24,000 nucleotides of DNA, from assembly GCA_902782635.1 (NCBI GenBank), contig CACZNT010000058.1:4173-28172 (forward strand). Reading direction: 5' to 3'. The notes under the pieces are model-generated. The model ran no database searches. It was not told the DNA's origin and saw only the letters and a program-made list of their open reading frames with translations. How positions within the stretch are numbered: position 1 is the stretch's first letter; each line of letters starts with the position of its first letter. Positions 4,455-24,000 of this stretch are shown here, piece after piece. Source of the stretch: an uncultured Coriobacteriaceae bacterium (lineage in GTDB: Bacteria; Actinomycetota; Coriobacteriia; Coriobacteriales; Atopobiaceae). The position numbers and the translations under genes were made by a program.

Positions 4455-4456
4455 GG

Positions 4457-7287: not shown

Positions 7288-8391
7288 CTAGAGACCTGCG
7301 ACGTAGGTCTTGAGCTCGTCGGCGCTCTTGGGAACGACGATCTCGCCCTCCTTGATCTTCTCGATGACCGCGAGGGCATCGTTGTAGATCTCGTCGGGGA
7401 GCAGGTCGTGCGTGGGAGCAATGCCCACGGCATCCTCGGCAGCGCCCAGGGTGATGTTTTCGCCGCCCTTGAGGTCGCCCTCGAGCAGGCCGGTGGAGAT
7501 GTTGATGATGGCCTGGTCGACGCGCTTGAGCGCCGAGGTGATCACGGTGTCGGGGGCGAGGAAGGACTGATCCTGGTCGACGCCGATGGCCCAGATGCCG
7601 GCCTCCTTGCAGGCCTCGATCATGCCAGCGCCAACGCCGCCGGCGGCGTGGTAGATGACATCGCAGCCATTGGCGATCTGCTTCTCGGCGGTGGACTTGC
7701 CCAGCGCCGCATCGGAGAAGGAGTCGGTCCACTGGCCCTCGTAGGTGACGGAGAGACCCTTCTCCTTGTTGGCGTACTCGATGCCGGCGTAGTAGCCCTG
7801 CTCGAACTGCTGCATGACCTCGGAGTCGATGCCGCCGATGAAGCCGACCTTGCCGGCCTTGCTCATGCGGGCTGCGATGTAGCCGACGGCGAAGGAGCAC
7901 TCCTCCTGCTTGAAGGCCACGCCCGTGAGGTTGGCGGGATTGTCGGCATAGGTGTTGTCGATGATGGCGAACTTCACATCCGGATAGGTCTCGGCGGCCT
8001 CGAGCATGGCATCGCCCATCAGGAAGCCAACGCCCCAGACGAGCTCGGAGCCATCGTCGACGGCCTTGTCGAGGTTGGTCTTGTAGTCGGAGTCCTGCTT
8101 GGACTCGAGGTAGGCCACGTCGTAGCCGTGCTCGCTGCCGAGCACCTGCATGCCGGCCCAGGAGAGCTCGTTGAACGACTGGTCGTTGACGCCGCCCACG
8201 TCGGTGACCATCTCGACCTTGTGGCCGGTGCCCGCATCGGCGCTGTCCCCGGCGTCGGCCTCGGTGTCAGCGGCGTCAGCGGCATCGTCGCTGGCAGCCG
8301 GAGCGCCACCGCAGCCGGCGAGAGCCGCCATGGCAGCGGTGCCCATCGAGAACGCGAACGCGCGACGGGTCATCTTGGTGTTCATTGGCAT
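7288..8391 (-). CDS. BMP-family (Med/PnrA/TmpC-like) ABC substrate-binding lipoprotein, probable nucleoside-binding
   Basis: RBS GGAAGGAG lies 9 nt before the ATG at 8391. The signal peptide carries the lipobox LAGC (MTRRAFAFSMGTAAMAALAGCGG), followed by a D/A-rich linker. BMP-family motifs VWGVGFLMGDA and WAIGVDQDQ are present. Confidence 0.9.
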   Translation of the reverse strand: MPMNTKMTRRAFAFSMGTAAMAALAGCGGAPAASDDAADAADTEADAGDSADAGTGHKVEMVTDVGGVNDQSFNELSWAGMQVLGSEHGYDVAYLESKQDSDYKTNLDKAVDDGSELVWGVGFLMGDAMLEAAETYPDVKFAIIDNTYADNPANLTGVAFKQEECSFAVGYIAARMSKAGKVGFIGGIDSEVMQQFEQGYYAGIEYANKEKGLSVTYEGQWTDSFSDAALGKSTAEKQIANGCDVIYHAAGGVGAGMIEACKEAGIWAIGVDQDQSFLAPDTVITSALKRVDQAIINISTGLLEGDLKGGENITLGAAEDAVGIAPTHDLLPDEIYNDALAVIEKIKEGEIVVPKSADELKTYVAGL

Positions 8392-8463
8392 ACCCTTTCT
8401 CTCCTTCCGGGTGGCCCATGCCCACCCGCCTCGGCGGCAAGCCGCCTTTTCAACAATAAGCAG

Positions 8464-8472
8464 ATTCTATCA
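8464..8472 (-). promoter_or_regulatory. candidate extended -10 box (TGATAGAAT) for the ABC importer operon
   Basis: The minus strand reads TGaTAGAAT. The same TGnTAGAAT form occurs upstream of mgtA (14011-14019) and TGcGATACT upstream of psuK. It lies ~70 nt upstream of the lipoprotein ATG. No convincing -35. Confidence 0.3.
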
Positions 8473-8564
8473 GCTAATCGCGCTGGGATGCCACCGCAGC
8501 GGCGAGCGCGACCTTTCTATCAGCTAATCGCGCTGGGATGCCACCGCAGTGGCGAGCGCGACCT
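8465..8564. repeat. perfect-phase tandem duplication, 2 x 50 bp, one mismatch; the second copy contains the last 13 codons and the stop of deoD
   Basis: 8465-8514 ttctatcagctaatcgcgctgggatgccaccgcagCggcgagcgcgacct is repeated at 8515-8564 with T at 8550. Confidence 0.95.
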
Positions 8565-9240
8565 CCATCATCTGAGTGAAGCTCGTCTGGCGCTCCTCGG
8601 CGGGCAGGCTCTCGCCGCGCATCGGGATGTCGGAGATGGTGAAGATGCCCAGCGCACGCTTGCCGGCGGCCGCAGCGTTCATGTAGAGGCCGGCCGACTC
8701 CATCTCGACGGCCAGGCAGCCCATGTCCGCCCAGCGCTTGTGCCAGTCGTCGGGGCAGTAGAAGACGTCGCTCGAGACGATGTTGCCCACGCGAACGTTG
8801 ACGCCCAGCTGCTCGCCCGCGTCGACGGCCTTGCGCAGGAGGTCGAAATCGGCGAGGGGCGCGAAGGTGCCCGGCAGGTCGAACTGGCTCGCGAAGTTTG
8901 AGTCGGTGGAGGCGCCCTGCGCGATGACGACGTCGCGCAGCTGGACCTCGTCGCCCAGGCCGCCCGCCGTGCCGATGCGGATGATGGCGTCGACGTCGTA
9001 GTTGTGGAAGAGCTCCCACGAGTAGATGCCGATGGAGGGGATGCCCATGCCCGACCCCATCACCGAGATGCGCGTGCCCTCGTAGGTGCCGGTGAAGCCG
9101 AACATGTTGCGCACCTCGTTGAACTGCTTGACGTCCTCGAGGTAGTTGTCGGCCACGTACTTGGCGCGCAGCGGGTCGCCCGGCATGAGGACGACCTTGG
9201 CAATCTGGCCCTTCTTGGCTGCGTTGTGCGGTGTTGCCAT
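8524..9240 (-). CDS. deoD: purine nucleoside phosphorylase, DeoD type
   Basis: 238 aa. MATPHNAAKKGQIAKVVLMPGDPLRAKYVA...GFTGTYEGTRISVMGSGMGIPS...VEMESAGLY is the classic hexameric PNP pattern. RBS GGAGGGATAGC. The start lies 1 nt after the deoB stop. Confidence 0.93.
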   Translation of the reverse strand: MATPHNAAKKGQIAKVVLMPGDPLRAKYVADNYLEDVKQFNEVRNMFGFTGTYEGTRISVMGSGMGIPSIGIYSWELFHNYDVDAIIRIGTAGGLGDEVQLRDVVIAQGASTDSNFASQFDLPGTFAPLADFDLLRKAVDAGEQLGVNVRVGNIVSSDVFYCPDDWHKRWADMGCLAVEMESAGLYMNAAAAGKRALGIFTISDIPMRGESLPAEERQTSFTQMMEVALATAVASQRD

Positions 9241-9241
9241 G

Positions 9242-10432
9242 CTATCCCTCCAAAATCTCGTGTAGATGCGACTGGCCCACGCCCAGCTGCGGGGCGCCCA
9301 GGTACTCCAGGATGGTCTCGGCCATGTCCGCGAAGGTGGGGAGCGTGCCCAGGTCGACGCCGGAGCGCACCTTGGGGCCCACGATGAGCCAGGGGACGTA
9401 CTCGCGCGAGTGGTCGGTCGACGGGGTGACGGGGTCGCAGCCGTGGTCGGCCGTGATCATGAGCAGGTCGTCATCGCGCAGCTTCGGCAGCATCTCGTCG
9501 AGCTTGGCGTCGAAGTAGGAGATGGCCTCGGCATAGCCGTCCGCATCGTTTCGGTGGCCGTAGATCATGTCGGTGTCCACCAGGTTGGTGAAGCAGAGGC
9601 CCTCGAAGTCGCGGTCCATCCATTCGATGGTGCGCTCGATGCCATCGGCGTTGCCGGCGGTGAGCACGTGGTCGGTCATGCCGCGATGGGCGAAGATGTC
9701 CCAGATCTTGCCCACCGAGAGCACGTCCTTGCCCTGCTCCTTGAGGACGTCGAGCATGGTGGGGCCGGTGGGCTCGAGGGAGAAGTCGTGGCGGTTGAAG
9801 GTGCGCTCGAAATTGGGCCACTCGCCGATGAACGGGCGGGCGATGACGCGGGCGACGCCGTGCTCGCCCGCGAGGATCTCGCGCGCCTGGCGGCAGTACT
9901 CGTAGAGCTGCTCGGGCGGGACGAGGTCCTCGTGCGCGGCAATCTGGAAGACGGAGTCGGCCGAGGTGTAGACGATGAGCGCGCCCGTCTCGAGGTGCTC
10001 GCGGCCGTAGTCGTGGATGACCTGCGTGCCCGAGTAGGGCTTGTTGCAGAGGGCTTTGCGTCCGGTGGCCTTCTCGAAGGCCTCGATGACCTCGGGCGGG
10101 AAGCCGTCAGGATAGGTGGGGAACGGCTTGGGCGAGAGGACGCCCGCCATCTCCCAGTGGCCGACGGTGGTGTCCTTGCCGGCCGAGGCCTCCTGCATGC
10201 GCGCGAAGGCGCCCTCCGGATGGTCGACCGGGGCGAGCGAGTGCTCGTAGGGCGAGTCGAGCGCGCCCTCGACGTTGCACAGGCCGAGGCGGGTCATGTT
10301 GGGGATGTTCATCTTGGGGCTGGTGCCGCAGGCGCACAGGGTATTCGATCCCTCGTCGCCCCATGCGGCGGCGTCGGGTGCCTCGCCGCAGCCGAAGCTG
10401 TCGAGCACCACGACGAACACGCGCTTTGCCAT
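9242..10432 (-). CDS. deoB: phosphopentomutase
   Basis: 396 aa. N-terminus VVLDSFGCGEAPDA, and ITADHGCDP metal-binding motifs. RBS AGGAGGTAGCTT lies before the ATG at 10432. Confidence 0.93.
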   Translation of the reverse strand: MAKRVFVVVLDSFGCGEAPDAAAWGDEGSNTLCACGTSPKMNIPNMTRLGLCNVEGALDSPYEHSLAPVDHPEGAFARMQEASAGKDTTVGHWEMAGVLSPKPFPTYPDGFPPEVIEAFEKATGRKALCNKPYSGTQVIHDYGREHLETGALIVYTSADSVFQIAAHEDLVPPEQLYEYCRQAREILAGEHGVARVIARPFIGEWPNFERTFNRHDFSLEPTGPTMLDVLKEQGKDVLSVGKIWDIFAHRGMTDHVLTAGNADGIERTIEWMDRDFEGLCFTNLVDTDMIYGHRNDADGYAEAISYFDAKLDEMLPKLRDDDLLMITADHGCDPVTPSTDHSREYVPWLIVGPKVRSGVDLGTLPTFADMAETILEYLGAPQLGVGQSHLHEILEG

Positions 10433-12642: not shown

Positions 12643-13869
12643 TCACATTCCCAGGACGTCGGGCCAGGCGGAGCTGAGGCCGGCGCGCTCGATGAGGTCG
12701 GCCGTTGCCGGCGAATCGCCCGTGAGCATGTACGAAATCGCGGGCAGCTCCTCCCATGAGGCCAGCTTGTCCCGCTGCTCGTCCGAAAGACCCTCGTAGC
12801 TGCGCAGACAACCCTTGAGACCGTCGAGCAGGGGCAGCGCCGCCGTGCCGCGACGGCTGCGCATGCAGGTCGTGCTCGCGCCCGGGCCCTCCGCGTCGCG
12901 CTCGGCCTTGGCGAGCAGCACCCCGCGCATGATCCAGAGGAAGATGGGAAGTATCAGGCTCAGCAGGAAGAGGGTGCGCATGTTCGACGCGCTCGAGGCG
13001 AAGAGCGTGAGCACCGAAAGTCCCAGGCCCAGGCCGTCGGCACGCGCCGCCGCGAACGCCTCCTGGCTCGCCGGCGACGACACCGTCATGATGACGAGCA
13101 CCGCGCCCAGGCCGAGGATGATGACGTTCTGCAGCCAGCCGCCACGCCAGGGGTCGCCGCCCACCCGCTGCGTGGCCGCCTTGAGCATCGGCGTGGCGAG
13201 CGCGTCCCCCTCGGCCAGGATCAGCCACTCCTCCGTCTGATCCTCGTCGAGCGGCCCCTGCTCCAGCTTGCGCACCAGGTAGAGCTCGGCGGGCGTGAGC
13301 ACGTCGTCGAGGGGGTCCACGTCGGCCGGCCTGCGCGCGGCGATGCGCTGCTCCATGGAGGTGCGTCGCTTGGCGACGGTCTTCTTGCCATCCGGCGCCA
13401 CGTGCTTGCCGGGGAGCACCTCGAGCCCCTCGTCTCCGAGCCGGATGATGCCCTGCCGCTCGAGGTCGAGCAGCGTGGCCACCGCGGCGGCGCGAGCGTC
13501 GGCGTGGAGGTTGTCGAGGAGGCCCACCGCGAGCGGGGTGAGGCCGGAGAGGCGCTTCTTGCAGCTGTCGAGGTCGGCGTCGACGTCGAAGGTCGCCTCG
13601 CCGCGCGCCTCGTGGAGCTTCGGACCCCACACGCGCTGCCAGGCAACCCAGGCAACGCCCAGCAGGATGAGACCGCCGATAATGAGGAAGAGCGTGGACG
13701 CGAACGTCGCCCGATTGGGGTCGCCTGCGCGCTCGGAGATGTCGACGGCGGCACGCTCGCACATGGGCAGCGCGACGAGAACGTACGGGACCAGCACGAG
13801 AACCACGAGGTAGCGGGCGTAGCGCCACATGGTGGACCCGCCCGCACCAGCCTGCTTGGTTGATGCCAC
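12643..13869 (-). CDS. hypothetical polytopic membrane protein (about 5 TM helices, ~170-aa cytoplasmic insert, ~100-aa C-terminal tail); no family recognised
   Basis: High GC3 in this frame. Hydrophobic helices include YLVVLVLVPYVLVALP, LFLIIGGLILLGVAWVAW, NVIILGLGAVLVIMTV and LFLLSLILPIFLWIM. GTG at 13869 follows the RBS GAGGAGAGGAGCAATC and a GATAAT box at 13897-13902. The ATG at 13830 is an alternative start. The track start at 14196 runs through the repeat and the mgtA promoter. Confidence 0.65.
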   Translation of the reverse strand: MASTKQAGAGGSTMWRYARYLVVLVLVPYVLVALPMCERAAVDISERAGDPNRATFASTLFLIIGGLILLGVAWVAWQRVWGPKLHEARGEATFDVDADLDSCKKRLSGLTPLAVGLLDNLHADARAAAVATLLDLERQGIIRLGDEGLEVLPGKHVAPDGKKTVAKRRTSMEQRIAARRPADVDPLDDVLTPAELYLVRKLEQGPLDEDQTEEWLILAEGDALATPMLKAATQRVGGDPWRGGWLQNVIILGLGAVLVIMTVSSPASQEAFAAARADGLGLGLSVLTLFASSASNMRTLFLLSLILPIFLWIMRGVLLAKAERDAEGPGASTTCMRSRRGTAALPLLDGLKGCLRSYEGLSDEQRDKLASWEELPAISYMLTGDSPATADLIERAGLSSAWPDVLGM

Positions 13870-13896
13870 GATTGCTCCTCTCCTCTTGATGCGAGG

Positions 13897-13902
13897 ATTA
13901 TC
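13897..13902 (-). promoter_or_regulatory. candidate -10 box (GATAAT) for the membrane-protein gene
   Basis: The minus strand reads GGGGGATAATCC, ending 27 nt upstream of the GTG at 13869. Confidence 0.25.
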
Positions 13903-13934
13903 CCCCATCCCGCCATCGCGCGCCCGGCAGACAT

Positions 13935-13987
13935 GTGACAGATGGGGAATGTCCCCAAGTGTCACGCAGACCTGTCCCCTTTGGCAT
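13935..13987. repeat. type-A palindromic repeat plus a type-B half-site
   Basis: GTGACAgatGGGGAatGTCCCCaagTGTCACgc at 13935-13967, followed by agACCTGTCCCCTTTGGCAT at 13968-13987. Confidence 0.85.
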
Positions 13988-14010
13988 ATCGCGCTGCGGT
14001 GGGGTGGGTT

Positions 14011-14019
14011 TGGTAGAAT
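14011..14019 (+). promoter_or_regulatory. candidate extended -10 promoter (TGgTAGAAT) for the mgtA leader
   Basis: tttGGTAGAATg lies ~160 nt upstream of the mgtA ATG. No good -35 at 17 nt. Confidence 0.35.
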
Positions 14020-14054
14020 GTAGCTGCCGAAAGCACACCCGAAGGAGGTGACCC

Positions 14055-14114
14055 ATGGACGCCGATAGTTGCAAATACGCCGCATCACGCAGCGCCATGG
14101 GTGCCGCCCGCTAA
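14055..14114 (+). CDS. candidate leader peptide ORF (19 codons, MDADSCKYAASRSAMGAAR) in the mgtA 5' leader
   Basis: The near-perfect SD GAAGGAGGTG (14041-14050) lies 4 nt before the ATG at 14055. The stop TAA is at 14112-14114, 66 nt before the mgtA ATG. The ORF is too short for the ORF track. Coding status is unproven. Confidence 0.3.
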   Translation: MDADSCKYAASRSAMGAAR

Positions 14115-14180
14115 CGCAATCCCCGCACGTCATCCATGGCCTGCCCGAACCGCGCCCGCATGCCGGGAGGGGAGGTCGCC

Positions 14181-16865
14181 ATGTCCAAGAACGCAATCAG
14201 GCAGAAGAACGCCACGCTGGAGCGCAGCTGGCTCATCCACATCGCATCGCTCGACGACGAGCAGCTCTTCGACGAGCTCTCGACGCGCAGGAGCGGCCTC
14301 GGGCCGGACGAAGTCGAGAGCTCCCGCGAGCTCCACGGCGAGAACCTCATGGCAGGGGCCGAGCGTACGCCGGCCATCGTCCGCCTGCTGGGATGCGTCG
14401 CCGACCCGTTCGTCCTCATCCTCATCGTGCTGGGCATCGTCTCGCTCATCACCGACGTCATCCTCGCCGCGCCCGGCTCCACCGATCCCGCCACGCCCGC
14501 CCTCATCGCGGGCATGGTGGTGGTCTCGGTGGCCCTGCGCTTCGTGCAGGAGTCGCGCGGGGAGTCGGCCGCCGAGGCGCTCGCGGAGTCCATCGAGACC
14601 ACCTGCAACGTCGAGCGCGCCGGCACGGGCCGCCGCGAGATCCCGCTGGACGAGGTCGTCGTCGGCGACATCGTCCACCTGGCCGCGGGCGACATCGTCC
14701 CCGCCGACATGCGCCTCATCGCCGCGCGCGACCTCTTCGTGGGCGAGTCGTCGCTCACCGGCGAGAGCGAGCAGGTGGAGAAGCACGACCGGCCCATCGC
14801 GGACGCCGCCTCGCCGCTCGAGGCCGCAAACCTCGCCTTCCTCGGCACCACGGTGATATCGGGCACGGGCATCGGCGTCGCGGTGGCCGTCGGCCAGTCC
14901 ACCATGCTGGGGACTATCTCGAAGAAGCTCTCCTCCACGGCCAAGCAGACGGCCTACGATCGCGGGATCGCCGAGGTCTCGGTCCTGCTCGTCCGCCTCA
15001 TGCTGGTCGTGGTGCCCATCGTGTTCGCCATCAACGCGCTCACCAAGGGCAACTGGCTCGACGCCCTGCTCTTCTCGCTCTCGGTGGCCGTGGGCCTCAC
15101 GCCGGAGATGCTGCCGATGATCGTCACCGCGTGCCTGGCCAAGGGCGCGGTGGACCTCTCGCGCGAGCGCGTCATCGTCAAGCGGCTCGACGCCATGCAG
15201 AACCTCGGCGCCATCGACGTCCTGTGCTGCGACAAGACCGGCACTCTCACCGAAGACCGCGTGGTGCTCGAGCGCCATCTCGACGTTGCCGGCGACGAGT
15301 CGGTGACGGTGCTGCGGCACGCCTTCCTCAACAGCCACTTCGAGACGGGCATGCTCAACCTCATCGACACGGCCATCATCGACTGCGCCCATCGCGAGAC
15401 GGGCCTGGATGACGACGCTCTGGTGGAGGACCACTACGCGGTGGACGAGCTCCCCTTCGACTACGAGCGCCGCCGTGTGAGCGTCGTGGTAGGCGATGCC
15501 GCCGGGCGCACGCGGATGATCACCAAGGGCGCCATCGAGGAGATCCTCTCCATCTGCGACAAGGTGGAGTACCAGGGCGTCGTCCATACGCTCACGCCCG
15601 AGCTGGGCGACGAGCTGCTCGAGCGCGGCCATCGGCTGGCTGCCGACGGCATGCGCGTGCTGGGCGTGGCGCGCAAGGACGACCCGGCCGGCGTTGGCTC
15701 GCTCACCACCGACGACGAGAGCCAGATGACGCTCGTCGGCTACCTGGCGTTCCTCGACCCGCCCAAGGCAGACGCCGCCGAGGCCATCACGGCGCTCGGG
15801 GCCCACGGGGTCGCGACGAAGGTCCTCACCGGCGACTCGCTGCGCGTGGCCTGCCATGTGTGCGAGAGCATCGGCATCCCCACCGAGCTTGTGGCCGACG
15901 GCGCTACGCTCGAGGGGCTCGACGACCGGGAGTTTGGCGAGGTCGTCGCCAAGGGGACCGTCTTCGCCAAGCTCTCCCCCGACCAGAAAGTGCGCATCGT
16001 GGAGACGCTCCAGGCGCAGGGGCATGCGGTGGGCTTCATGGGCGACGGCGTCAACGATGCCGCGGCCATGCGCGCTGCCGACTGCGGCGTCTCGGTGGAC
16101 ACGGCCGCCGACGTGGCCAAGGAGTCGGCCGACATCATCCTGCTCGAGAAGGACCTCATGGTGCTCGAGCGCGGCATCGAGGGCGGGCGGCGCACCTTCG
16201 CCAATATGAGCAAGTACGTCAAGCTCACCGCCAGCTCGAACTTCGGCAACGTGTTCTCCGTGCTGGTGGCCAGCGCCTTCCTGCCCTTCCTGCCGATGAG
16301 CGCCGTGCAGCTACTCTTCCTCAACTTCGTCTACGACCTCACCTGCACCGCCATGCCCTGGGACGCCGTCGACGACGAGGTGCTCGCCTCGCCGCGCTCC
16401 TGGGACGCCGGCTCGATCTCGTCGTTCATGCGGTGGATGGGGCCGATCAGCTCGGTGTTCGACATCATCACCTATGCGGTGCTGTTCTTCGCCATCTGCC
16501 CGATGGCGGCAGGCGGCAGCTGGGGCGAGCTGGCCGACGGCGGCGCGCGGGCCGTCTTCGTAGGGACCTTCCAGGCGGGATGGCTGCTCGAGAGCATGGT
16601 GACGCAGGTGCTGGCCGTGCACCTGCTGCGCACCGACCGCAAGCCCTTCTTGGAGAGCCACGCGGCGCCGCTGCTCATGGTACTCGGCTTTGCGGGAGTC
16701 GTGGTGGCGGCGGTGATGTGCCTGGCGCCCGTGGGCTACGTGATCGACCTCGCGCCGCTGCCGGTGGCGGCGCTGGGCGCGCTTGCGGCGATCGTCGTCG
16801 GATACGTGGCCTGCGTGCTCGTGGCGCGCCGCCTCTACCAGGAACGCTACGGCTCGCTGCTGTAG
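14181..16865 (+). CDS. mgtA: magnesium-translocating P-type ATPase
   Basis: Start re-derived to MSKNAIRQKN (RBS GGGAGGGGAGG). P-type motifs TGESEQVEK, DKTGTLTEDRV and MGDGVNDAAAM are present. The MgtA-specific C-terminal region is RTFANMSKYVKLTASSNFGNVFSVLVASAFLPFLPM. 894 aa. Confidence 0.92.
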   Translation: MSKNAIRQKNATLERSWLIHIASLDDEQLFDELSTRRSGLGPDEVESSRELHGENLMAGAERTPAIVRLLGCVADPFVLILIVLGIVSLITDVILAAPGSTDPATPALIAGMVVVSVALRFVQESRGESAAEALAESIETTCNVERAGTGRREIPLDEVVVGDIVHLAAGDIVPADMRLIAARDLFVGESSLTGESEQVEKHDRPIADAASPLEAANLAFLGTTVISGTGIGVAVAVGQSTMLGTISKKLSSTAKQTAYDRGIAEVSVLLVRLMLVVVPIVFAINALTKGNWLDALLFSLSVAVGLTPEMLPMIVTACLAKGAVDLSRERVIVKRLDAMQNLGAIDVLCCDKTGTLTEDRVVLERHLDVAGDESVTVLRHAFLNSHFETGMLNLIDTAIIDCAHRETGLDDDALVEDHYAVDELPFDYERRRVSVVVGDAAGRTRMITKGAIEEILSICDKVEYQGVVHTLTPELGDELLERGHRLAADGMRVLGVARKDDPAGVGSLTTDDESQMTLVGYLAFLDPPKADAAEAITALGAHGVATKVLTGDSLRVACHVCESIGIPTELVADGATLEGLDDREFGEVVAKGTVFAKLSPDQKVRIVETLQAQGHAVGFMGDGVNDAAAMRAADCGVSVDTAADVAKESADIILLEKDLMVLERGIEGGRRTFANMSKYVKLTASSNFGNVFSVLVASAFLPFLPMSAVQLLFLNFVYDLTCTAMPWDAVDDEVLASPRSWDAGSISSFMRWMGPISSVFDIITYAVLFFAICPMAAGGSWGELADGGARAVFVGTFQAGWLLESMVTQVLAVHLLRTDRKPFLESHAAPLLMVLGFAGVVVAAVMCLAPVGYVIDLAPLPVAALGALAAIVVGYVACVLVARRLYQERYGSLL

Positions 16866-16870: not shown

Positions 16871-16951
16871 GTGACAGATGGGGACTGTCCCCAAGTGTCA
16901 CGCAGACCTGACCCTTTTGGCATGACAAAGGGGACTGTCCCTTTTGTCATG
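16871..16951. repeat. type-A repeat, type-B half-site and a complete type-B palindrome; the last hairpin plus its T-run is a likely intrinsic terminator of mgtA
   Basis: GTGACAgatGGGGACtGTCCCCaagTGTCACgc at 16871-16903, agACCTGACCCTTTTGGCATG at 16904-16924, and CATGACAAAGGGGACtGTCCCTTTTGTCATG at 16921-16951, followed by TTTTG. Confidence 0.85.
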
Positions 16952-17001: not shown

Positions 17002-18513
17002 ATGAGCGAGTTCATGGACATCATCACGGCGAGCAACCTCACCTACCAGCAGAAGCTCATTCACCTGGCGCAGGCCGCCGAGAACTGCGAGCACCCCATC
17101 CCCACCACGCCCGAGTTCGACCGCCTCTTCGAGGCCGACGCGCTCTGCGACATGCACGAGGGCAACGCCCCCTACCGCCCGCGCTACATCTGCGTCGACT
17201 TCGAGAAGTTCGCGCGCCAGGGAAGCGAGTTCCTCCGCCTCGACGCGCCGGACAACATCGACGACCTCATCGCGAACCTCGAGATCATCTACCAGAACAT
17301 CCCCAGCGTGACGGGCCGCCCCGTCTACTGCGGGCAGCTCGACCGCATCTTCGAGCCCTTCATCGCCGATCTCGACGACGACGAGGTCCTCCCCCGCCTC
17401 AAGCGATTCCTCAACTTCATCGACCGCACCGTCGCCAGCGGCTACTGCCACGCGAACCTCGGCCCCGAGGAGACGCGCGCGGGACGCCTGCTGCTCCAGG
17501 CCGACGCCGAGGTGCAGAACGCCATCCCCAACTTCACCCTCAAGTACGACCCCGACGTCACGCCTGACGACTTCGCACGCCTGGCGCTCTCGACCTCGAT
17601 GGCCTGCGCGAACCCGGCCTACGCCAACCACCGCATGCTCCGCGAGACCTACCCCGTGCCCGAGGCGGGCTACCCGGACGGCTACACGGTGGTCTCCTGC
17701 TACAACGTGCTCCCCCTGCGCGGCGGCGCCTACTGCCTCGACCGCATCAAGCTGCAGAACCTCGCGAGCATGGCCGAGGGCGTCGACCACTTCCTCGACA
17801 CGCTCGTCCCCGAGGCGACGGGCGCGCTGCTCGACTACATGAACGCGCGCGTCACCTTCCTCGTCGAGGAGTCCAACTTCTTCCAGAGCTCGTTCCTCGT
17901 GCGCGAGGGCCTCATCGAGCGCGAGCGCTTCTGCGGGATGTTCGGCGTCATCGGCATGCACGAGTGCATCGAGCGCCTCCTGCCGGGCAAGGTCTACGGC
18001 ACCGACGCCGAGGCCAACGACCTGGCCGACGCCATCATGGCCAAGATCACCGCGCAGGTGGAGGCGGCCCCGGCCGTCTACTCGGAGGTGGCGGGCGGCC
18101 ACTTCATGATGCACGCGCAGGCCGGCTTCGGCGACCAGCTCGAGTCGACGCCGGGCGTGCGCATCCGCGTGGGCGAGGAGCCGGAGGTCTTCTTCGACCA
18201 CCTGCGCCACTCCGCGCGCATGCACCGCTTCTTCACCGCGGGCGTCTCGGACATCTTCCCCGTCGAGCCTACGGCGACGTCGAACCTCGACGCCCTGCTC
18301 GACGTCGTGAAGGGCGCCTTCGCCATCGATGACAAGTACCTCTCGTTCTACCCGAGCGACTCCGACCTCGTGCGCATCACTGGCTTTTTGGTGAAGCGCT
18401 CGGAGATGGAGAAGTTCGCGCGCGGCGAGGCAGTGCTGGCCGACACGAGCCACGACGGCGAGGGCAACTGGCGCGCCAACGCGCTCGGCGACCGCAAGGT
18501 CCGCATGGGATAA
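17002..18513 (+). CDS. yjjI: small glycyl-radical enzyme of unknown function, YjjI-like
   Basis: 503 aa, lying 6 nt upstream of a glycyl-radical activase gene. The C-terminal SDLVRITGFLVKR fits the RVxG[FWY] glycyl-radical fingerprint about 40 residues from the end. Size and pairing match the YjjI/YjjW family rather than the 750-850-aa PFL-type enzymes. Assignment is from memory of the family, not from a search. Confidence 0.7.
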   Translation: MSEFMDIITASNLTYQQKLIHLAQAAENCEHPIPTTPEFDRLFEADALCDMHEGNAPYRPRYICVDFEKFARQGSEFLRLDAPDNIDDLIANLEIIYQNIPSVTGRPVYCGQLDRIFEPFIADLDDDEVLPRLKRFLNFIDRTVASGYCHANLGPEETRAGRLLLQADAEVQNAIPNFTLKYDPDVTPDDFARLALSTSMACANPAYANHRMLRETYPVPEAGYPDGYTVVSCYNVLPLRGGAYCLDRIKLQNLASMAEGVDHFLDTLVPEATGALLDYMNARVTFLVEESNFFQSSFLVREGLIERERFCGMFGVIGMHECIERLLPGKVYGTDAEANDLADAIMAKITAQVEAAPAVYSEVAGGHFMMHAQAGFGDQLESTPGVRIRVGEEPEVFFDHLRHSARMHRFFTAGVSDIFPVEPTATSNLDALLDVVKGAFAIDDKYLSFYPSDSDLVRITGFLVKRSEMEKFARGEAVLADTSHDGEGNWRANALGDRKVRMG

Positions 18514-18519: not shown

Positions 18520-19371
18520 ATGTCCGAGCTGGCGCCCGTCAACAAGATCATCCCCTTCTCCCTGGTCGACGGGCCGGGGAGCAGGACGTCCGTATTCCTC
18601 CAGGGGTGCAACATCGCCTGCGAGTACTGCCACAACCCCGAGACGCAAACGCTGTGCATTGGCTGCGGGACCTGCGTCGCGGGCTGCCCGGCTGGCGCGC
18701 TCGCACTCGCTGACGGGCGCGTGAGCTGGGATGAGGGCGCCTGCGTGGGCTGTGACGAGTGCATCCGCGTCTGCCCGCACAGGGCGAGCCCCAAGATCCG
18801 GCTGATGAGCGCCGACGAGGTGTTCGAGCAGGTGGCGGGCTATGCGCCCTTCATCCGCGGGGTGACGGTGTCGGGCGGTGAGTGCATGCTCTGGCCGACG
18901 TGGCTCGAGCGCTTCCTCTCCCGCTGTCGAGGCGCGGGCCTGGGCACGCTCATCGACTCTAACGGGACGGTCCCCTTCTGGGAGCACCCCGAGCTCATGG
19001 AGGCTGCCAACGGCGTGATGCTCGACGTGAAGGCCTGGGACGCCGATGTGGCCGAGCGCCTCACCGGGCAGGGGCGTGCGCTCACGGAGACGGTCCACGC
19101 GAACCTCGCCTGGCTCGCGCGGGCGGGCAAGCTCGAGGAGGTGCGCGTCGTCGTGGTGCCCGATGGCTGGGGCGATGCCGAGGAGACGCTCGCCGGGATT
19201 GCGCGCACGCTGGGCGGTTTGGCTGACGATACGCGGCTCAAGCTCATCCGATTCCGCAACTTCGGCGTGGTGGGAAAGCTGGCCGGCGCACCGTCGCCCA
19301 CCGACGAGCGCATGCAGGGGCTGGAGACGCTCGCCTGCGAGCTCGGCTTCCGCACCATCGTCCTCACCTGA
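18520..19371 (+). CDS. yjjW: glycyl-radical enzyme activating protein (radical SAM), YjjW-like, with two ferredoxin-type auxiliary cluster motifs
   Basis: FSLVDGPGSRTSVFLQGCNIACEYCHNPET matches the GRE-activase N-terminal CX3CX2C region. CIGCGTCVAGCP and CVGCDECIRVCP are present. GVTVSGGEC is the SAM-binding GGE motif. Confidence 0.88.
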   Translation: MSELAPVNKIIPFSLVDGPGSRTSVFLQGCNIACEYCHNPETQTLCIGCGTCVAGCPAGALALADGRVSWDEGACVGCDECIRVCPHRASPKIRLMSADEVFEQVAGYAPFIRGVTVSGGECMLWPTWLERFLSRCRGAGLGTLIDSNGTVPFWEHPELMEAANGVMLDVKAWDADVAERLTGQGRALTETVHANLAWLARAGKLEEVRVVVVPDGWGDAEETLAGIARTLGGLADDTRLKLIRFRNFGVVGKLAGAPSPTDERMQGLETLACELGFRTIVLT

Positions 19372-19372: not shown

Positions 19373-19549
19373 AAATGAGTCAATAGGGACGTAGTCAACT
19401 GACTCATTTTTGCTGCAATAACCAACATCCCGTGGGCCTTTTCCAACAAACTCTCCTCTGACCGGAGCCGTTGTCAACGCGATGTTGGTTAGCCACCTAC
19501 CCCTGGCCTCAAAATGAGTCAATGGGGACGTAGTCAACTGACTCATTTT
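19373..19549. repeat. 177-bp composite element: two 38-bp palindromic direct repeats flanking an 11-bp-stem inverted repeat; R1 may double as the yjjW terminator
   Basis: R1 at 19373-19410 is AAATGAGTCAatagggacgtagtcaacTGACTCATTTt, followed by T. R2 at 19512-19549 is identical except for one base (A/G). The internal TAACCAACATC (19419-19429) is perfectly complementary to GATGTTGGTTA (19481-19491). No coding capacity. Confidence 0.85.
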
Positions 19550-19555
19550 CACCGG

Positions 19556-19580
19556 CGCAGACCTGTCCCCTTTGTCATGC
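19556..19580. repeat. type-B repeat half-site
   Basis: gcgcagACCTGTCCCCTTTGTCATGc has the same motif as 13968-13987 and 16904-16924. Confidence 0.8.
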
Positions 19581-19677
19581 GGTCCAATTTCGTCTGCCGT
19601 GTCGGATACGATCCCAAATCGAGTATCCTCATAGACCCGATGACGCAGACCTGCGCGGTCTGCCCGAGAGGAGAACG

Positions 19678-20718
19678 ATGTCGTTCGACCCGCGCCACGA
19701 GGACTACCAGAGGATGGGCCTGCGCTTTGCCCGCACCCTGGACGAGACCGACCCATATGGGACGGTCCGTGCGTTCTCGGCGTTTGGCCGCAGGTTCTCG
19801 CAGAATCGCGACTCGCTCCCCCAATCGGATGGCGACCGCGCCTTCCACCTCGTGGCCGAGGCCACCAACCTCATCGACTACCAGCTCCCCTTCGTGGCAG
19901 ACGAGGAGTGCCTGCCCATGATCGAGCGGGCGTCGCGCATGCTCCAGGAGGCGATCGACCTCGACGCGGGCTGCCACGATGCCCATCGCATGCTGGCGGC
20001 CTCCACCACCTCGGGCTTCGAGAGCTACTACCGCTTCCTGTCGGACGGCGCCGAGGCCGTGCTCGCGGATTGCACGCGCGAGCGCGACGAGGCGCGCCGC
20101 CTTCCCGGGACGAACGAGCGGCGCCTGGGCAGCGAGCTCGCCATGCGCCCCTACGTGCGCTGGGCGGCGATGCGCTCGGCCAAGGCCCTCATCTGCGGAC
20201 GCTACCGCGAGGCGCTGAGGCTCGCCTTCGAGCTCCTCGAGATGTTCCCCTCCGATCCGGCCGACGTCCGCTTTACGGCCGCGCTCGCCTACGCAAAACT
20301 CGAGGACGAGGCAGGTCTCGACGAGCTCGAGCGGTCCATGCGCGCCCGCTTCGCCAAGCGCGGGACCGACGCCTGGATGCTCCTCGCGCGCATCGCGCTC
20401 GCCCGCAAGAGCGGCAGCGACCGGATGGCGCGCTCGTTCCTGCTCCGCCTCATCGAGACCTACCCGCATGCGGCGCTCACGCTCTTCCGCCAAGACGAGC
20501 TGCCCGACGGCGTGTTTTCGCGCCTCGCCGTGGCGCCGCTTAGCGAGGACGAGCTCATACTGGCCGTCTCCGAGGCGACGGTGCTGCTGCAGGAGGGCAT
20601 CGACTCCGACGAGCGCGGGCCGCTTGGCACCTGGCTCGCCGAGCAGCCCGAGGTGGCGCTCGCCCGCGCGGCTGCGGGCAAGGGCAAGGGCGCTGCCACG
20701 GGACGGAGCGCGCGCTAG
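19678..20718 (+). CDS. hypothetical protein, alpha-helical/TPR-like, paralog 1 (346 aa)
   Basis: RBS GAGAGGAGAACG lies before the ATG. Strong GC3 bias. No signal peptide or TM helix. A/L/R/E-rich helical repeats. Clearly alignable to the next gene. Ends in a basic G/K/A tail. Confidence 0.8.
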   Translation: MSFDPRHEDYQRMGLRFARTLDETDPYGTVRAFSAFGRRFSQNRDSLPQSDGDRAFHLVAEATNLIDYQLPFVADEECLPMIERASRMLQEAIDLDAGCHDAHRMLAASTTSGFESYYRFLSDGAEAVLADCTRERDEARRLPGTNERRLGSELAMRPYVRWAAMRSAKALICGRYREALRLAFELLEMFPSDPADVRFTAALAYAKLEDEAGLDELERSMRARFAKRGTDAWMLLARIALARKSGSDRMARSFLLRLIETYPHAALTLFRQDELPDGVFSRLAVAPLSEDELILAVSEATVLLQEGIDSDERGPLGTWLAEQPEVALARAAAGKGKGAATGRSAR

Positions 20719-21687
20719 ATGGACGGTCGTGCGGAGCTCGTGCTGAGATGCGCCACGCGCAGGCGCTCGGAGCTGGGCGGCCTCTCGGATGCCGCCTATT
20801 CCGAATTGCTCGCGAGCGTCGAAGCCAATCCGGAGCGCTTCGTCACCACCACCGCCGACGAGTCGTTTGCCGAGGTCGTGCGTGCGCTTGCCCAGATGGA
20901 GGCCGACGCTGCAGATGACGACCTCCTCGACGACGATCAGTACCTGCGGGCGCGCTCGCAACGCCTGGCCCGTCTCTCGGAGGCATGCGACCGCGCCCTC
21001 GCGCTCGATGGCGACAATCTCGACGCGCGCCTGCTCAAGATCCTCGCCGCCGACGAGCGGCCCGACGTGCTCATCGCACAGCTCGAGGCGCTCGACCGCG
21101 AAGTGCGACCCTCCGACGAGCAGGCCGAGCCCGTAGGACAGAGCTGGTCGAACGTCTACGCGCGTCCCTGGCTGCGCCTCAAGGCCGCGCTCTCGCGCAC
21201 CTATCTCGAGGCGGCCCGCTACCGCGCGAGCGCGAATGCCTGCGAGCAGCTGCTGTCGCTCTCGCCCGATGACGAGCTGGGCGCGCGTCTCACCCTGGCG
21301 CTCGCGCTCTCCAGGCTCGAGGACGAGGCCGCGCTCGATGCGCTCGACGCCCGCTTCGGCCGACGCGGAAATGCCTGGCTGCACCTCGCGCGTGTCCTCG
21401 TGCTCTACAAGCTCGACCGTCTGCCGGCGGCCCGCCGCGCCCTCAGGGGCTTCTGTGAGCTCTGCGATGGCGGGGCGAGCGCGCTTTTGCACCCCATGTT
21501 CGTTGACATCTACCTGCCCGACCGGCCCAGCTTCACCCCGGGGAGCTTCGAGGAGGCGGCCATGGCCGTGCGCGAGGCCGACCCCATCGTGGTGGACACG
21601 CCCGACTTCATTGGCTGGTGCGCCGAGCAGCCCAGCGTCACGGAGATGGCCGAGCGCTACTCCGACGAGCACGGCCTCGACTGGTAG
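20719..21687 (+). CDS. hypothetical protein, alpha-helical/TPR-like, paralog 2 (322 aa)
   Basis: The ATG directly abuts the upstream TAG (20716-20721). Shared blocks with paralog 1 are RPWLRL/RPYVRW, SPDDELGARLTLALALSRLEDEAALDALD/FPSDPADVRFTAALAYAKLEDEAGLDELE, RGNAWLHLARV/RGTDAWMLLARI and WCAEQPSV/WLAEQPEV. Confidence 0.8.
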   Translation: MDGRAELVLRCATRRRSELGGLSDAAYSELLASVEANPERFVTTTADESFAEVVRALAQMEADAADDDLLDDDQYLRARSQRLARLSEACDRALALDGDNLDARLLKILAADERPDVLIAQLEALDREVRPSDEQAEPVGQSWSNVYARPWLRLKAALSRTYLEAARYRASANACEQLLSLSPDDELGARLTLALALSRLEDEAALDALDARFGRRGNAWLHLARVLVLYKLDRLPAARRALRGFCELCDGGASALLHPMFVDIYLPDRPSFTPGSFEEAAMAVREADPIVVDTPDFIGWCAEQPSVTEMAERYSDEHGLDW

Positions 21688-21813
21688 CCGCACGCCGCGG
21701 ACAAGAGCCGAGTCGCCCCTCATATTTGCCATCCTCACCGGGACGGATGCGGCACCTGATGCGTATGAGCGGTCAACTGGCACATCTGATGCCTCGACGA
21801 GAAGGGCACTACC

Positions 21814-21996
21814 ATGGAGTTTGAGGATCTCGCCGAGGAGCAGAAGGCCAAGGCACGCTCCTGCAAGAACGCCGAGGAACTGATTGCGCTTGCCGCGAGC
21901 GAGGGCATCGAGCTCACAGACGATCAGCTCAAGCATGTTGCAGGCGGGATCGGCCAAAGCTGCATGACCATGCACGTAACCTGGTCGTCTGATTAA
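21814..21996 (+). CDS. candidate Nif11-like double-glycine leader peptide precursor (RiPP or bacteriocin-type), 60 aa
   Basis: MEFEDLAEEQKAKARSCKNAEELIALAASEGIELTDDQLKHVAGG / IGQSCMTMHVTWSSD. The leader pattern AEELxALAxxxGxELTxxQL...VAGG is followed by a 15-aa core. RBS AGAAGGG lies 8 nt upstream. 45 of 60 codons end in G/C. A hairpin follows downstream. Confidence 0.55.
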   Translation: MEFEDLAEEQKAKARSCKNAEELIALAASEGIELTDDQLKHVAGGIGQSCMTMHVTWSSD

Positions 21997-22024
21997 TCTG
22001 GCGCAACAAGGGCGGCTGCACCTC

Positions 22025-22068
22025 GCGCTCAGCACGATCGATGATATCTCTCGATCGAGCTTGAGCGC
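22025..22068. terminator. bidirectional hairpin between the convergent peptide gene and the DUF218 gene
   Basis: In GCGCTCAgcaCGATCGAtgatatctcTCGATCGagctTGAGCGC, two stacked stems form: GCGCTCA/TGAGCGC and CGATCGA/TCGATCG. Confidence 0.5.
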
Positions 22069-22089
22069 GATCTGCCTTGCCCTCGCGGC

Positions 22090-23604
22090 CTACCCCCCGA
22101 AGATCGCCGAGGACTCCCCCATCAGGAAGAGGGCGTATCCCGCCAGGACGTAAATCGACACGATGGCCAAGTAGGTGATGAGGATGCCCTTCCACCTGGA
22201 CGCCAGCAGGCCCGCGAACTCACGCAGGAACGCGTTCGGCCAGAAGTAGGCGCGCGTGCGGCTTCCCATGCCCTGCGCGGCCATGCCGGCCCGATGGGCG
22301 CACACGTAGCCGCGGAACACGTGGTAGTTGGTAGTCGAGAACCCCACGCGCAGCTCGCTCGCATCGCGACCCGCGTGCTCCTCGATCACCTTTCTGGAGA
22401 ATTCCATGTTCTCGTTCGTGGTGGCGGAGCGGTCCTCCAGCACGATGCGATCGGCGCTCACGCCTCGCGACACGAGGTAGTCGCGCATGCTCTGGGCCTC
22501 GGAGATCACCTCGTCGGGCCCCTGCCCGCCGCTGGGCACGAAGGTGGCGGGAGCGCCGCCGGCCTCCACGCACTTGGCGTCAAACTCCCGCGCGCGGTCC
22601 ACGCGCCCCGCCAGCAGCGGCGAGGGCGTCCCGTCGGCGCGAATGCCGCAGCCCAGCATCACCAGGTAGTCCACAGGCACGGCGGGCTCCATGCGCGACG
22701 CCATCCACGCGCATAGCATGGTGACGAGCAGCAGGCACTCCCCATAGCTGATGGCAACGGCGATGCACGACTCGACGATCTGCATCGTCGCAAAGGGGAT
22801 GCTCGCAGCGGCGCCGATGTTCCACCACTCGAGCCAGAGCCAAATGGCGGCCAGCCACAGCAGGCTCACTATGACGCCCAGCAGGTTGACGGGGCGCATG
22901 CCCTCGCGGCGGATGAGAACGAGGTTGCTCAGGGAGACCAGCAGGCACAGCAGCGCCATGGGGATGAGGCCGATGATGGTGAACATGTCCGCTGCCGAGG
23001 TCAGCATGTATGCCAGGTCGCTGAAGCTGCGCAGGCTGCCCCGGACGAGCAAGTAGGAGAACAGCAGGAACTGGAAGAAGAGGAACATCGCGCCGCCGCA
23101 CGCGGCCACCATGCCATAGTCGAACCAGCGGGCACACTTCAGCTCCGAGAGCGCGCTCGCGCACAGCGCCGCGGACACGCCGAAGAGGATGCAGGTGCAT
23201 ATGAGGATGGATTCCCAGCCGGAGAAGTCTATGCCGGCGCATATGATGGCCCCGTTGCGCACTTGCATGTTCCAGTAGGTCGACAGCATCTCGTCGCCGA
23301 ACGTCACGTCGGTCGCGCCATCCGCCACGGCCTCGAACGTGACGCACGCCGAGTCGCCGATCCCGTAGCTCACATTGGTGGCGCGCACCACGCCAGCGTC
23401 GGCAATGTGCACGTCATCAAGGCCAAAGCGGGAGAAGCCCTCGCCCTCGAAATAGGGCGGCGTCCACACCTCGTAGGTCGAGCACACCGAGCGGATGTGA
23501 AGGTAGCAACCAACGGCCATCGCGACCACGAGCGGTATGAGGATCAGAAATCGGCGCCAGAGGTTCTTCGGCGGGAGGGCGATGCCTGCGGCAGCATTGG
23601 TCAT
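22090..23604 (-). CDS. polytopic membrane protein with a C-terminal DUF218 (YdcF/SanA/ElyC-like) domain
   Basis: RBS GAGGAGAAACC lies before the ATG at 23604. An N-terminal TM helix and a ~100-aa extracytoplasmic segment are followed by about 6 TM helices. The DUF218 motifs are YLVMLGCGIRADGTPSPLLAGRVDRA, VPSGGQG and EDRSATTNENMEFS. A final TM helix closes the protein. Confidence 0.8.
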   Translation of the reverse strand: MTNAAAGIALPPKNLWRRFLILIPLVVAMAVGCYLHIRSVCSTYEVWTPPYFEGEGFSRFGLDDVHIADAGVVRATNVSYGIGDSACVTFEAVADGATDVTFGDEMLSTYWNMQVRNGAIICAGIDFSGWESILICTCILFGVSAALCASALSELKCARWFDYGMVAACGGAMFLFFQFLLFSYLLVRGSLRSFSDLAYMLTSAADMFTIIGLIPMALLCLLVSLSNLVLIRREGMRPVNLLGVIVSLLWLAAIWLWLEWWNIGAAASIPFATMQIVESCIAVAISYGECLLLVTMLCAWMASRMEPAVPVDYLVMLGCGIRADGTPSPLLAGRVDRAREFDAKCVEAGGAPATFVPSGGQGPDEVISEAQSMRDYLVSRGVSADRIVLEDRSATTNENMEFSRKVIEEHAGRDASELRVGFSTTNYHVFRGYVCAHRAGMAAQGMGSRTRAYFWPNAFLREFAGLLASRWKGILITYLAIVSIYVLAGYALFLMGESSAIFGG

Positions 23605-24000
23605 GGTTTCTCCTCGGCCGCCATTCTGCGGGAAAGCGCCTGCTACTCTCCACAGAAGATATCACGTATGCGAAAGATGACCCGCCCATTCTCGAAATGG
23701 CGCAAGTGGTGCCCCCGCCGTGCGGTAGTCAAGCCCAGAGCCGAGACTTGTGTCATAAACATACTGCCGACGTCAGCATCTTCTCCATTCAGCTCGTCAT
23801 ACATAAATTCATGCTGGATGCCTGAATGGCAACCCATGATGACAATTGATCATCGTAGGGGAAATCTTGTCAATGAAGTATTCGAGGACCGAGTCTCGCA
23901 CTTGCTCATCGTCGAAGCCGGTATTTGTCTACTTCTCAAAGCATACGAACTTCCAGTAGTACGATGGGGGGGACATTTCCCTACAGCTATAGATGTGAGA

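Follow-up and report, generated by a model that had tools for sequence, protein, structure and literature searches.

A Nif11-like double-glycine precursor peptide gene, probably an orphan, beside a conserved pair of TPR-like paralogs in the Atopobiaceae

Introduction

Among the described families of RiPP precursors, the closest to the peptide gene studied here are the Nif11-type precursors, or N11P (TIGR03798 / PF07862; PMC2887384), with examples such as the prochlorosin ProcA and LahA1-9 of the Lachnospiraceae (PMC6363468). Their leader is helical and acidic and closes with a Gly-Gly motif for cleavage, where similarity stops and a hypervariable, Cys-rich core begins. The precursor genes are often several per genome and remote from the genes for modification and export, and orphan genes are already a described trait of the family, whose leaders average ~70 aa (Haft et al. 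2010, PMC2887384). Other known systems share some of these characters. Ranthipeptides and sactipeptides are rSAM/SPASM-modified RiPPs with double-glycine leaders and short cores with Cys, whereas the class II bacteriocin and pheromone leaders (TIGR01847) span ~24 aa and typical bacteriocins are cationic. Finally, the RRNPP systems (NprR-NprX, Rap-Phr) show a comparable gene order, with one or more TPR proteins followed by a small co-oriented ORF.

Here we analyse a 24-kb stretch of Atopobiaceae DNA (hereafter, the window), where an earlier sequence-only reading had noticed a putative precursor of 60 codons directly behind two tandem paralogs, and had proposed either that the precursor is processed by enzymes encoded elsewhere or that the paralogs are its leader-binding, modifying or immunity partner. 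The peptide agrees with N11P in leader type, in the loss of similarity after the GG, in the hypervariable core and in its isolated location, and the loci of its relatives contain a C39-peptidase ABC transporter, for which cleavage and export are predicted. It differs from N11P in its 45-aa leader, characteristic of a short-leader subgroup, and in that the maturase adjacent to its relatives is an rSAM/SPASM enzyme, while none of the machinery is encoded in the 24 kb that hold the window copy. With ranthipeptides and sactipeptides it shares the short core with Cys, as well as the presence beside family members of an rSAM/SPASM enzyme of ~465 aa followed by PCAT-type exporters (locus L166), but the enzymes adjacent to the family match no equivalog and the window has none of them. 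The last ~13 residues of the leader (ELTDDQLKHVAGG) fit the logo of the class II leaders, to which the window leader adds an N-terminal, helical Nif11-like segment, and its core, unlike that of typical bacteriocins, is short (15 aa) and anionic.

Results

The locus

The features of the locus are the following (window coordinates):

19678..20718, plus strand: paralog A (346 aa), a TPR-like solenoid of the cytoplasm, first gene of the A-B pair
20719..21687, plus strand: paralog B, a 322-aa TPR-like solenoid, with its ATG directly after the TAG stop of A
21797..21802, plus strand: SD-like GAAGGG, by direct reading, 8 nt 5' of the peptide-gene ATG
21814..21996, plus strand: 60-aa precursor-peptide gene, from the ORF listing and the family profile
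22000..22090, no strand assigned: long GC-rich hairpin without U-tract, between the convergent peptide and DUF218 genes
22090..23604, minus strand: DUF218-domain membrane protein (Pfam DUF218, E = 5.8e-22), convergent with the peptide gene

Most of the elements described in the sequence-only reading were found again: the 60-codon ORF with its own SD, the GG at residues 44-45 followed by a 15-residue tail, the translationally abutted A and B (TAG, then ATG), the 126 nt between B and the small ORF, and the downstream hairpin, which is strong by folding (99 nt, -49.4 kcal/mol, z = -5.4). The arrangement GAAGGG..ACC ATG also occurs in locus L085, which carries the related peptide P0002. A terminator scan gave no consensus match at the hairpin or elsewhere 3' of the peptide gene, and a scan for consensus promoters between B and the peptide gene was equally negative. 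The DUF218 gene is the downstream neighbour in this species only and is not conserved beside A-B. One early description had to be corrected: the GC3 of the ORF, 45/60, is not host-like but falls in the lowest 3.9% of the 60-codon windows taken from the genes of the 24-kb window itself, whose mean is 55.2/60.

A double-glycine leader below the curated thresholds

The peptide would consist of a leader of residues 1-45 (MEFEDLAEEQKAKARSCKNAEELIALAASEGIELTDDQLKHVAGG) and a core of residues 46-60 (IGQSCMTMHVTWSSD), with the cut predicted after G44-G45. The leader is acidic and of the GG type, without a hydrophobic signal, and the last 13 residues ahead of the cut fit the published GG-leader logo, with Leu at -12, Thr at -11, Leu at -7 and Val at -4 (PMC2887384). 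It had been taken for a Nif11-type/NHLP-type leader, an assignment that stands for the family-specific profile and fails for the curated models, since the ORF reaches 16.6 bits with TIGR03798 (cut-off 32.3; model positions 21-50 of 68 aligned), 16.1 bits with Pfam Nif11, PF07862 (cut-off 23.8), and 13.1 bits with the NHLP model (cut-off 50.9). TIGR01847 also remains under its threshold (13.7 vs 15.7 bits), and two relatives, P0002 and P0003, score 18.0 and 26.2 bits with TIGR03798, both below the cut-off. In contrast with these curated scores, a leave-out leader HMM, built without the window sequence and without P0002, recognises the ORF with 83.3 bits (E = 8e-24) over positions 1-45 of 45; the match begins exactly at the ATG and is the only one of its kind among 18,042 six-frame segments. 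Because its 16.6 bits lie under the curated 32.3, we call the ORF, as judged from these profiles, Nif11-like rather than a certified Nif11 member.

A very large short-leader family

An exhaustive profile search retrieved 3,098 cluster representatives of the family, 309 of them at E <= 1e-10, whereas a word-indexed protein search with the peptide had returned just 3 matches. All the representatives are short and share the leader M.F.DLTPEQ.EKAKACK..EEL.ALAK.EGIELTDEQLEAVAGG, followed by unrelated cores. In an alignment of 34 members G44 and G45 are invariant and the cores cannot be aligned; 27 of these 34 members are matched by TIGR03798 at E < 0.01 (best E = 1.9e-8). The leaders of 110 parsed members have a median length of 47.5 aa, and the core contains Cys in 97 and Trp in 87 of these members. 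Two patterns recur in the family cores, an enrichment in Trp-x(0-7)-Cys and CxxC...CxxC motifs resembling zinc ribbons; Trp comes before Cys in 46/110 relatives, while in the window core Cys precedes Trp. Members can form tandem arrays of up to 7. On the basis of these comparisons, the 60-aa ORF truly belongs to a very large double-glycine (Nif11-like) precursor family, which is characteristic of anaerobes from gut and rumen. Metagenomes were scanned with a 7-sequence alignment as the query, and no copy of the peptide was found in the plasmid and phage collections searched. A string search of the literature for the leader motif yielded no paper, and the short-leader family is apparently unstudied.

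Modification and export genes

Some relatives of the peptide do have candidate machinery at hand. An rSAM/SPASM enzyme of ~465 aa adjoins the peptide in loci L166, L152 and L164 and in the high-GC locus L156, and a C39-ABC exporter together with a second ABC protein, presumably as a heterodimeric C39-ABC/ABC exporter, lies directly 3' of the peptide in L166, L130 and L146. These rSAM/SPASM enzymes match no equivalog model, with all scores far below the cut-offs (59-74 bits vs 340 for PapB; 59-68 vs 725 for TIGR04103, the NCBIfam "nif11-class peptide radical SAM maturase 3"). Such neighbours are scarce: the 121 proteins surrounding the peptide in 25 long loci gave just 3 C39 and 5 rSAM matches, and the 25 Pfam families that rank highest in these neighbours include no LanM-type match. 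Other members are orphans in housekeeping or mobile-element contexts (L093, L096, L170, L171, L174, L177-L179). The same holds for the window, where, as first reported, neither a maturase nor a C39-peptidase exporter is encoded within the 24 kb. Its sole radical SAM protein is a YjjW-type glycyl-radical activase, next to YjjI, and the association of a precursor with a maturase and/or C39 exporter by which RiPP and bacteriocin gene clusters are delimited does not occur there.

The paralogs A and B

The two upstream genes are indeed paralogs (BLASTP E = 2e-16; HHalign 99.7%, E = 2e-26 over 301 columns), with at least 498 homologs for A and at least 295 for B. Their description as all-helical, TPR-like proteins agrees with the AF2 models, which contain helices only (pLDDT 87 for A and 92 for B) and whose top Foldseek matches are all TPR proteins, as generic fold matches only. 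Profile matches in the PDB are restricted to designed alpha-Rep and CTPR proteins, and the single Pfam TPR and HEAT models stay under their cut-offs. From these models, A and B can be confidently predicted to be TPR solenoids. Domain and fold searches found in neither protein a catalytic domain, in line with the lack of a catalytic motif noticed before, nor an RRE-like domain, an HTH domain or membrane segments.

Discussion

Orphan precursor or stranded relic

We favour, with a probability of roughly 0.8, the explanation that the 60-aa ORF encodes an orphan double-glycine precursor, likely acquired or relocated and served from elsewhere if at all, and that A-B is unrelated to it and their adjacency coincidental. 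As far as the sequence can tell, the first of the two early proposals, processing by enzymes encoded elsewhere, is tenable, and it is supported by the family membership of the peptide, by the rSAM/SPASM and C39-ABC genes beside its relatives, and by the frequent orphans among them. The subthreshold scores with the curated models and the Cys-Trp order of the core count against our explanation. Under it, two partners would bind the helical leader of ~45 aa: a maturase, in the family clusters presumably the ~465-aa rSAM/SPASM enzyme, and, through its C39 peptidase domain, an ABC exporter, which would cleave after the GG and secrete the short Cys/Trp-containing core, here IGQSCMTMHVTWSSD. The gene stands alone between the TPR pair and the DUF218 gene, most likely after being acquired or relocated in the lineage of this species; it would depend on machinery elsewhere in the genome, if such machinery exists, and may be drifting towards loss.

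The alternative that best survives goes one step further and sees in the ORF a non-functional relic, acquired horizontally, stranded without maturase and exporter, and evolving neutrally. None of the other Atopobiaceae sampled has the gene, the window lacks the machinery, and the GC3 is well under the host mean. Moreover, in the sister strain L173 (99.3% identical) the 3 SNPs of the ORF are all non-synonymous, and one of them, L39H, destroys the conserved Leu at -7; however, these are only three sites, compatible statistically with neutrality and too few to prove it. Against a relic, five independent assemblies carry the ORF uninterrupted, with start, SD and GG kept, the leader shows a dN/dS of 0.23 relative to P0002, with synonymous substitutions dominating, and orphan precursors with distant enzymes are the rule for such families (PMC2887384). 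The low GC3 and the three non-synonymous SNPs suggest a gene that was acquired and is possibly decaying, and a complete relic seems to us possible, if rather unlikely.

In the opposite direction, the short-leader family could be an uncharacterised RiPP class with new chemistry, and the window copy a functional substrate that its actinobacterial host modifies in trans, an idea we regard as doubtful.

The paralog pair as a partner of the peptide

The second early proposal, which gives the TPR pair a new role beside the peptide, in leader binding, modification or immunity, has some appeal. Peptide binding is common among TPR domains, both models are confident solenoids, and the peptide gene is co-oriented with A-B, 126 nt away, with no consensus promoter between them. 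The distribution of both elements speaks against it. In 79/79 assessable Atopobiaceae loci the two genes stand in tandem, with A immediately 5' of B, and in none of these 79 was the peptide gene detected, either by tblastn or by the leader HMM with --max; conversely, a homolog of A or B is missing from all 90 loci with the peptide that were searched (473 kb). The peptide is also absent directly after B in the two closest relatives (75% and 57% identity), and what follows B in the closest relatives is a tRNA-like sequence or BioY. The tRNA-like end in L084 is truncated and is a reading of the sequence on which ARAGORN made no call. The conserved neighbours of A-B are genes for a Mur ligase, Fe-ADH, Ppx/GppA and transketolase, with no RiPP genes among them, and the proteins themselves lack catalytic domains, RRE-like domains and membrane segments. 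The pair is thus widespread without any adjacent small ORF, the very observation that the sequence-only reading had named as contrary to its proposal, and a partnership is not supported. Co-option of the TPR pair as a leader chaperone in this one species is much less likely even than the doubtful modification in trans considered above, and a dedicated partner is very improbable. As A-B is conserved family-wide without the peptide and the peptide loci lack A and B, we conclude that their proximity is a coincidence and not a new biosynthetic system, A-B being a family-wide cytoplasmic housekeeping module unrelated to the peptide system.

A still weaker case can be made for quorum sensing of the RRNPP kind, with A and/or B as cytoplasmic TPR receptors of a mature peptide encoded directly downstream. 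The order of a TPR gene and a small co-oriented ORF resembles NprR-NprX or Rap-Phr, and NprR, RapF and Rap-pLS20 are among the weak fold matches of A/B, but this likeness is that of generic TPR folds (E 0.06-0.17, TM 0.3-0.42), neither A nor B has an HTH domain, the leader is of the acidic GG type instead of a Sec signal peptide, and the peptide is missing from all relatives that keep A-B. We reject the analogy as highly improbable. Lastly, spurious ORFs abound in high-GC genomes and the curated models stay under threshold, but the idea that GC-rich DNA left this frame open by chance is refuted by the profile search, by the leave-out HMM with its single match along the entire leader from the ATG, and by the predominance of synonymous changes relative to P0002.

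Significance

A RiPP-like precursor beside two uncharacterised paralogs does not, in this case, make a functional unit, and therefore no new class of maturase, chaperone or immunity protein is implied. The locus also calls for caution, since double-glycine and Nif11-type precursors are often orphaned and recruiting their neighbours into a "cluster" needs evidence of co-occurrence. Both halves of the locus are nevertheless worth a specialist's look: the large short-leader family, found in anaerobes of gut and rumen and accompanied by rSAM/SPASM enzymes and paired ABC exporters, and the translationally coupled TPR pair found throughout the Atopobiaceae.

Gene content of the window

The window is a chromosome segment of about 67% GC, in which real genes were told apart by frame-specific GC3 and then annotated with Pfam. 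All coordinates in the sequence-only reading agree with our reading of the ORFs, and its statement that no LanB/C/M, YcaO, SPASM enzyme or C39 exporter (an ABC protein with a GG-cleaving peptidase domain) is encoded in these 24 kb was borne out by the Pfam annotation.

Features of the window (assigned with Pfam, except A, B and the peptide ORF)
1-10432, nucleoside-salvage and ABC-uptake genes
PfkB kinase and IndA-like genes
14136-16865, plus strand, P-type ATPase
17002-18513, plus strand, YjjI glycyl-radical enzyme
18520-19371, plus strand, YjjW-type activase of YjjI
19678-20718, plus strand, A, TPR-like paralog of 346 aa
20719-21687, plus strand, B, TPR-like paralog of 322 aa, its ATG immediately after the TAG of A
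21814-21996, plus strand, peptide ORF of 60 codons
22090-23604, minus strand, convergent DUF218 membrane protein

An ORF of 517 aa on the minus strand (12643-14196) has gene-like GC3 (0.86) and no Pfam match; its annotated 5′ end runs into the start of the ATPase gene, and its true start probably lies further in. At 23501-24000 the GC content falls to 0.53, against about 0.67 elsewhere, and searches for ORFs, tRNAs and Rfam families gave nothing convincing there. Mur-ligase and HAD-hydrolase genes, located 2-3 kb upstream of A-B in relatives (L087/L088), occupy positions 35-1517 of the window, about 18 kb upstream of the pair and separated from it by the nucleoside-salvage, ATPase and yjjI/yjjW blocks; this enlarged spacing reflects a lineage-specific insertion or rearrangement.

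Two kinds of repeat occur in the intergenic DNA. The 306-nt region between YjjW and A contains a 38-nt element with internal palindromy, AAATGAGTCAAT[A/G]GGGACGTAGTCAACTGACTCATTTT, in two direct copies (19373-19410 and 19512-19549) that lie 139 nt apart and agree at 37/38 nt. No further copy was found in the window or among the fetched loci (chance expectation 0); the element may represent an operator pair, a small RNA or the remnant of a MITE. A 23-nt box, GCAGACCTG[T/A]CCC[C/T]TTTG[T/G]CAT[G/A], precedes three plus-strand units, namely the P-type ATPase (13966-13988), yjjI-yjjW (16902-16924) and A-B (19557-19579). Its copy upstream of yjjI forms a palindrome with 15-nt arms (16921-16951), and similar sites, CCTGTCACC[T/A]TTGTCAT[G/C], are found just 5′ of A in two other A-B loci (L033, L037). 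The box is a candidate for a shared regulator or promoter element.

The peptide ORF as a member of a precursor family

Curated leader models agree in direction for the peptide ORF, yet all remain below threshold: TIGR03798 gives 16.6 bits (cut-off 32.3), PF07862 16.1 (23.8), NHLP 13.1 (50.9) and TIGR01847 13.7 (15.7). A word-indexed protein search with the peptide returned one identical protein and two relatives, nothing more, and these relatives keep the leader and the GG followed by unrelated cores. A family profile built from these three and searched against 1.84 billion cluster representatives matched 3,098 proteins at E <= 1e-3, of which 309 reach E <= 1e-10; nearly all of the 150 matches listed are 56-120 aa long. 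They share the leader consensus M.F.DLTPEQ.EKAKACK..EEL.ALAK.EGIELTDEQLEAVAGG, after which the cores are hypervariable. In 110 parsed members the median length is 47.5 aa for the leader and 23 aa for the core, with Cys in 97 and Trp in 87 of the cores, and TIGR03798 is matched at E < 0.01 by 27/34 family members.

A leader HMM from which the window sequence and its relative P0002 had been excluded gives the window ORF a score of 83.3 bits (E = 8e-24), over 45/45 leader positions and beginning exactly at the annotated ATG. The last 13 leader residues (ELTDDQLKHVAGG) conform to the published double-glycine logo (PMC2887384), and the leader codons, compared with those of the P0002 gene, give a dS of 0.74 and a dN of 0.17 (dN/dS 0.23). 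The profile matches, the leave-out score, the fit to the logo and the dN/dS together show that the ORF is a gene. Its earlier name, Nif11-like double-glycine precursor, describes it fairly, although it misses the TIGR03798 cut-off; the leader is a short variant, outside formal membership of that model.

The TPR pair and the peptide

A and B are paralogs over their whole length (BLASTP E = 2e-16; HHalign 99.7%, E = 2e-26, 301 columns). Their AlphaFold models are of high confidence (pLDDT 87 and 92) and consist exclusively of helices, and their Foldseek and PDB profile matches are only generic or designed TPR/alpha-repeat proteins. Both families have hundreds of members, all from Atopobiaceae/Coriobacteriales and essentially without annotation. 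Some NCBI records name A homologs “response regulator receiver protein”, a designation supported neither by Pfam nor by the all-helical AF2 model. With one genome per species, A lies immediately upstream of B in 79/79 assessable loci (of 80 that the scan returned), with variable flanking genes. Since a Mur-ligase-family gene (36/79), Fe-ADH (30/79), Ppx/GppA, transketolase and MazG recur nearby, the neighbourhood is a housekeeping one. The pair is an uncharacterised, translationally coupled set of TPR paralogs, Atopobiaceae-wide (L004-L083; window 19678-21687).

The suggestion that this pair is the partner of the peptide is not supported by these genomic comparisons. The A-B loci encode no such peptide according to tblastn with the window peptide (best E = 0.2) or P0002 (best E = 0.017), nor according to the leader HMM run without filters (E > 1). 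In a 57%-identity relative a convergent BioY gene overlaps B, and in a 75%-identity relative a sequence about 85 nt past B looks, on inspection, like the 3′ end of a tRNA gene in convergent orientation, truncated and not callable by ARAGORN. Conversely, the A and B HMMs, with 176 and 177 matches as positive controls, found no homolog in 90 peptide-bearing loci (473 kb; E > 3). A pair widespread without an adjacent small ORF is exactly the distribution that the sequence-only reading had named as refuting a partnership, and the TPR pair is unrelated to the peptide.

Organisation of the family in other loci

A metagenome scan yielded 80 loci with about 155 of these peptides, frequently arranged in tandem with as many as 7 in one array; these loci, apparently from gut or rumen samples, are mostly of 30-60% GC. 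Among the 121 neighbour proteins of the 25 longest loci, Pfam counts ABC_tran 7, ABC_membrane 6, Radical_SAM 5, SPASM 3 and Peptidase_C39 3, the remaining families being miscellaneous. In L166 the genes after the precursor encode, in this order, a 464-aa rSAM/SPASM enzyme, a C39-ABC exporter and a second ABC protein; this exporter pair recurs in L130 and L146, and the rSAM/SPASM enzyme in L152, L164 and the 62% GC contig L156. The rSAM enzymes in family loci are matched by none of the equivalog models. In the exporter pairs (L166 3911-8290; L130 5898-10246; L146 1786-6089) the C39-peptidase ABC protein precedes a same-sized ABC protein without C39, an arrangement that suggests a heterodimeric PCAT.

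A sister subgroup (L094-L168; e.g. L164 7098-11035, L112 728-4663, L107 5919-8241) has the same leader, MK.ELLKGLTEEQIAKVKACK..EELL.LAKEEGIELTDEQLEAVSGG, and cores of 40-55 aa with zinc-ribbon-like C.C..CP.CG...C..CG motifs, and lies on low-GC contigs, where up to 7 genes form a tandem array; a literature string search with its leader strings found no paper containing them.

Many members in the inspected loci are orphans; their neighbours are gyrA, an LPXTG protein, an IS110 transposase, CHAD/TauE/ADH genes, flavin reductases or TIR-domain proteins. Two unrelated short-core members have a TIR_2-domain protein 1-3 genes downstream (L174 4588-8028; L175; L177-L179, e.g. L177 10001-13036), in one case with faint Sel1 repeats; because TIR_2 does not rank among the 25 commonest Pfam families of the 121 neighbours, this may be a coincidence. 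Precursors of this kind are often encoded far from the genes for their modification and export, and some are known from species without an identified maturase (Haft et al. 2010, PMC2887384).

State and possible role of the window copy

The GC3 of the peptide ORF (45/60), previously described as host-like, is not so: for 60-codon windows in the window's own genes the mean is 55.2, and the ORF falls in their lowest 3.9%. The hairpin noted downstream of the ORF was confirmed (-49.4 kcal/mol, z = -5.4) and has no U-tract. A search of plasmid and phage collections found no copy of the peptide. The ORF is intact in four further assemblies, of which the most divergent, the sister strain L173 (99.3% nucleotide identity), carries three SNPs in it, 3/3 non-synonymous (A7T, I24L, L39H), with loss of the conserved cleavage-motif Leu at -7 through L39H. 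These SNPs fit relaxed constraint and are too few for a test. Over 19553-22500 the divergence between these conspecific strains is mosaic: A is 100% identical, while 10 SNPs (with 7 amino-acid changes) fall in B, 3 in the peptide ORF and 7 in the DUF218 gene, which suggests a recombination tract beginning inside B. That the gene is a stranded relic seems rather unlikely to us, and would be a sub-case of the favoured reading of the gene as an orphan family member, not a competitor to it.

The earlier observation was largely correct and its interpretation half right. At the level of sequence, the window peptide belongs to the family and has its leader/core architecture, and other members are associated with rSAM/SPASM enzymes and C39-ABC exporters; beyond this, the leader would dock on a maturase and on an exporter's C39 domain, both encoded elsewhere, the cut would fall after G45, and the released 15-mer would possibly be cross-linked via Cys50. 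The window peptide is an additional member of an already known kind of precursor.
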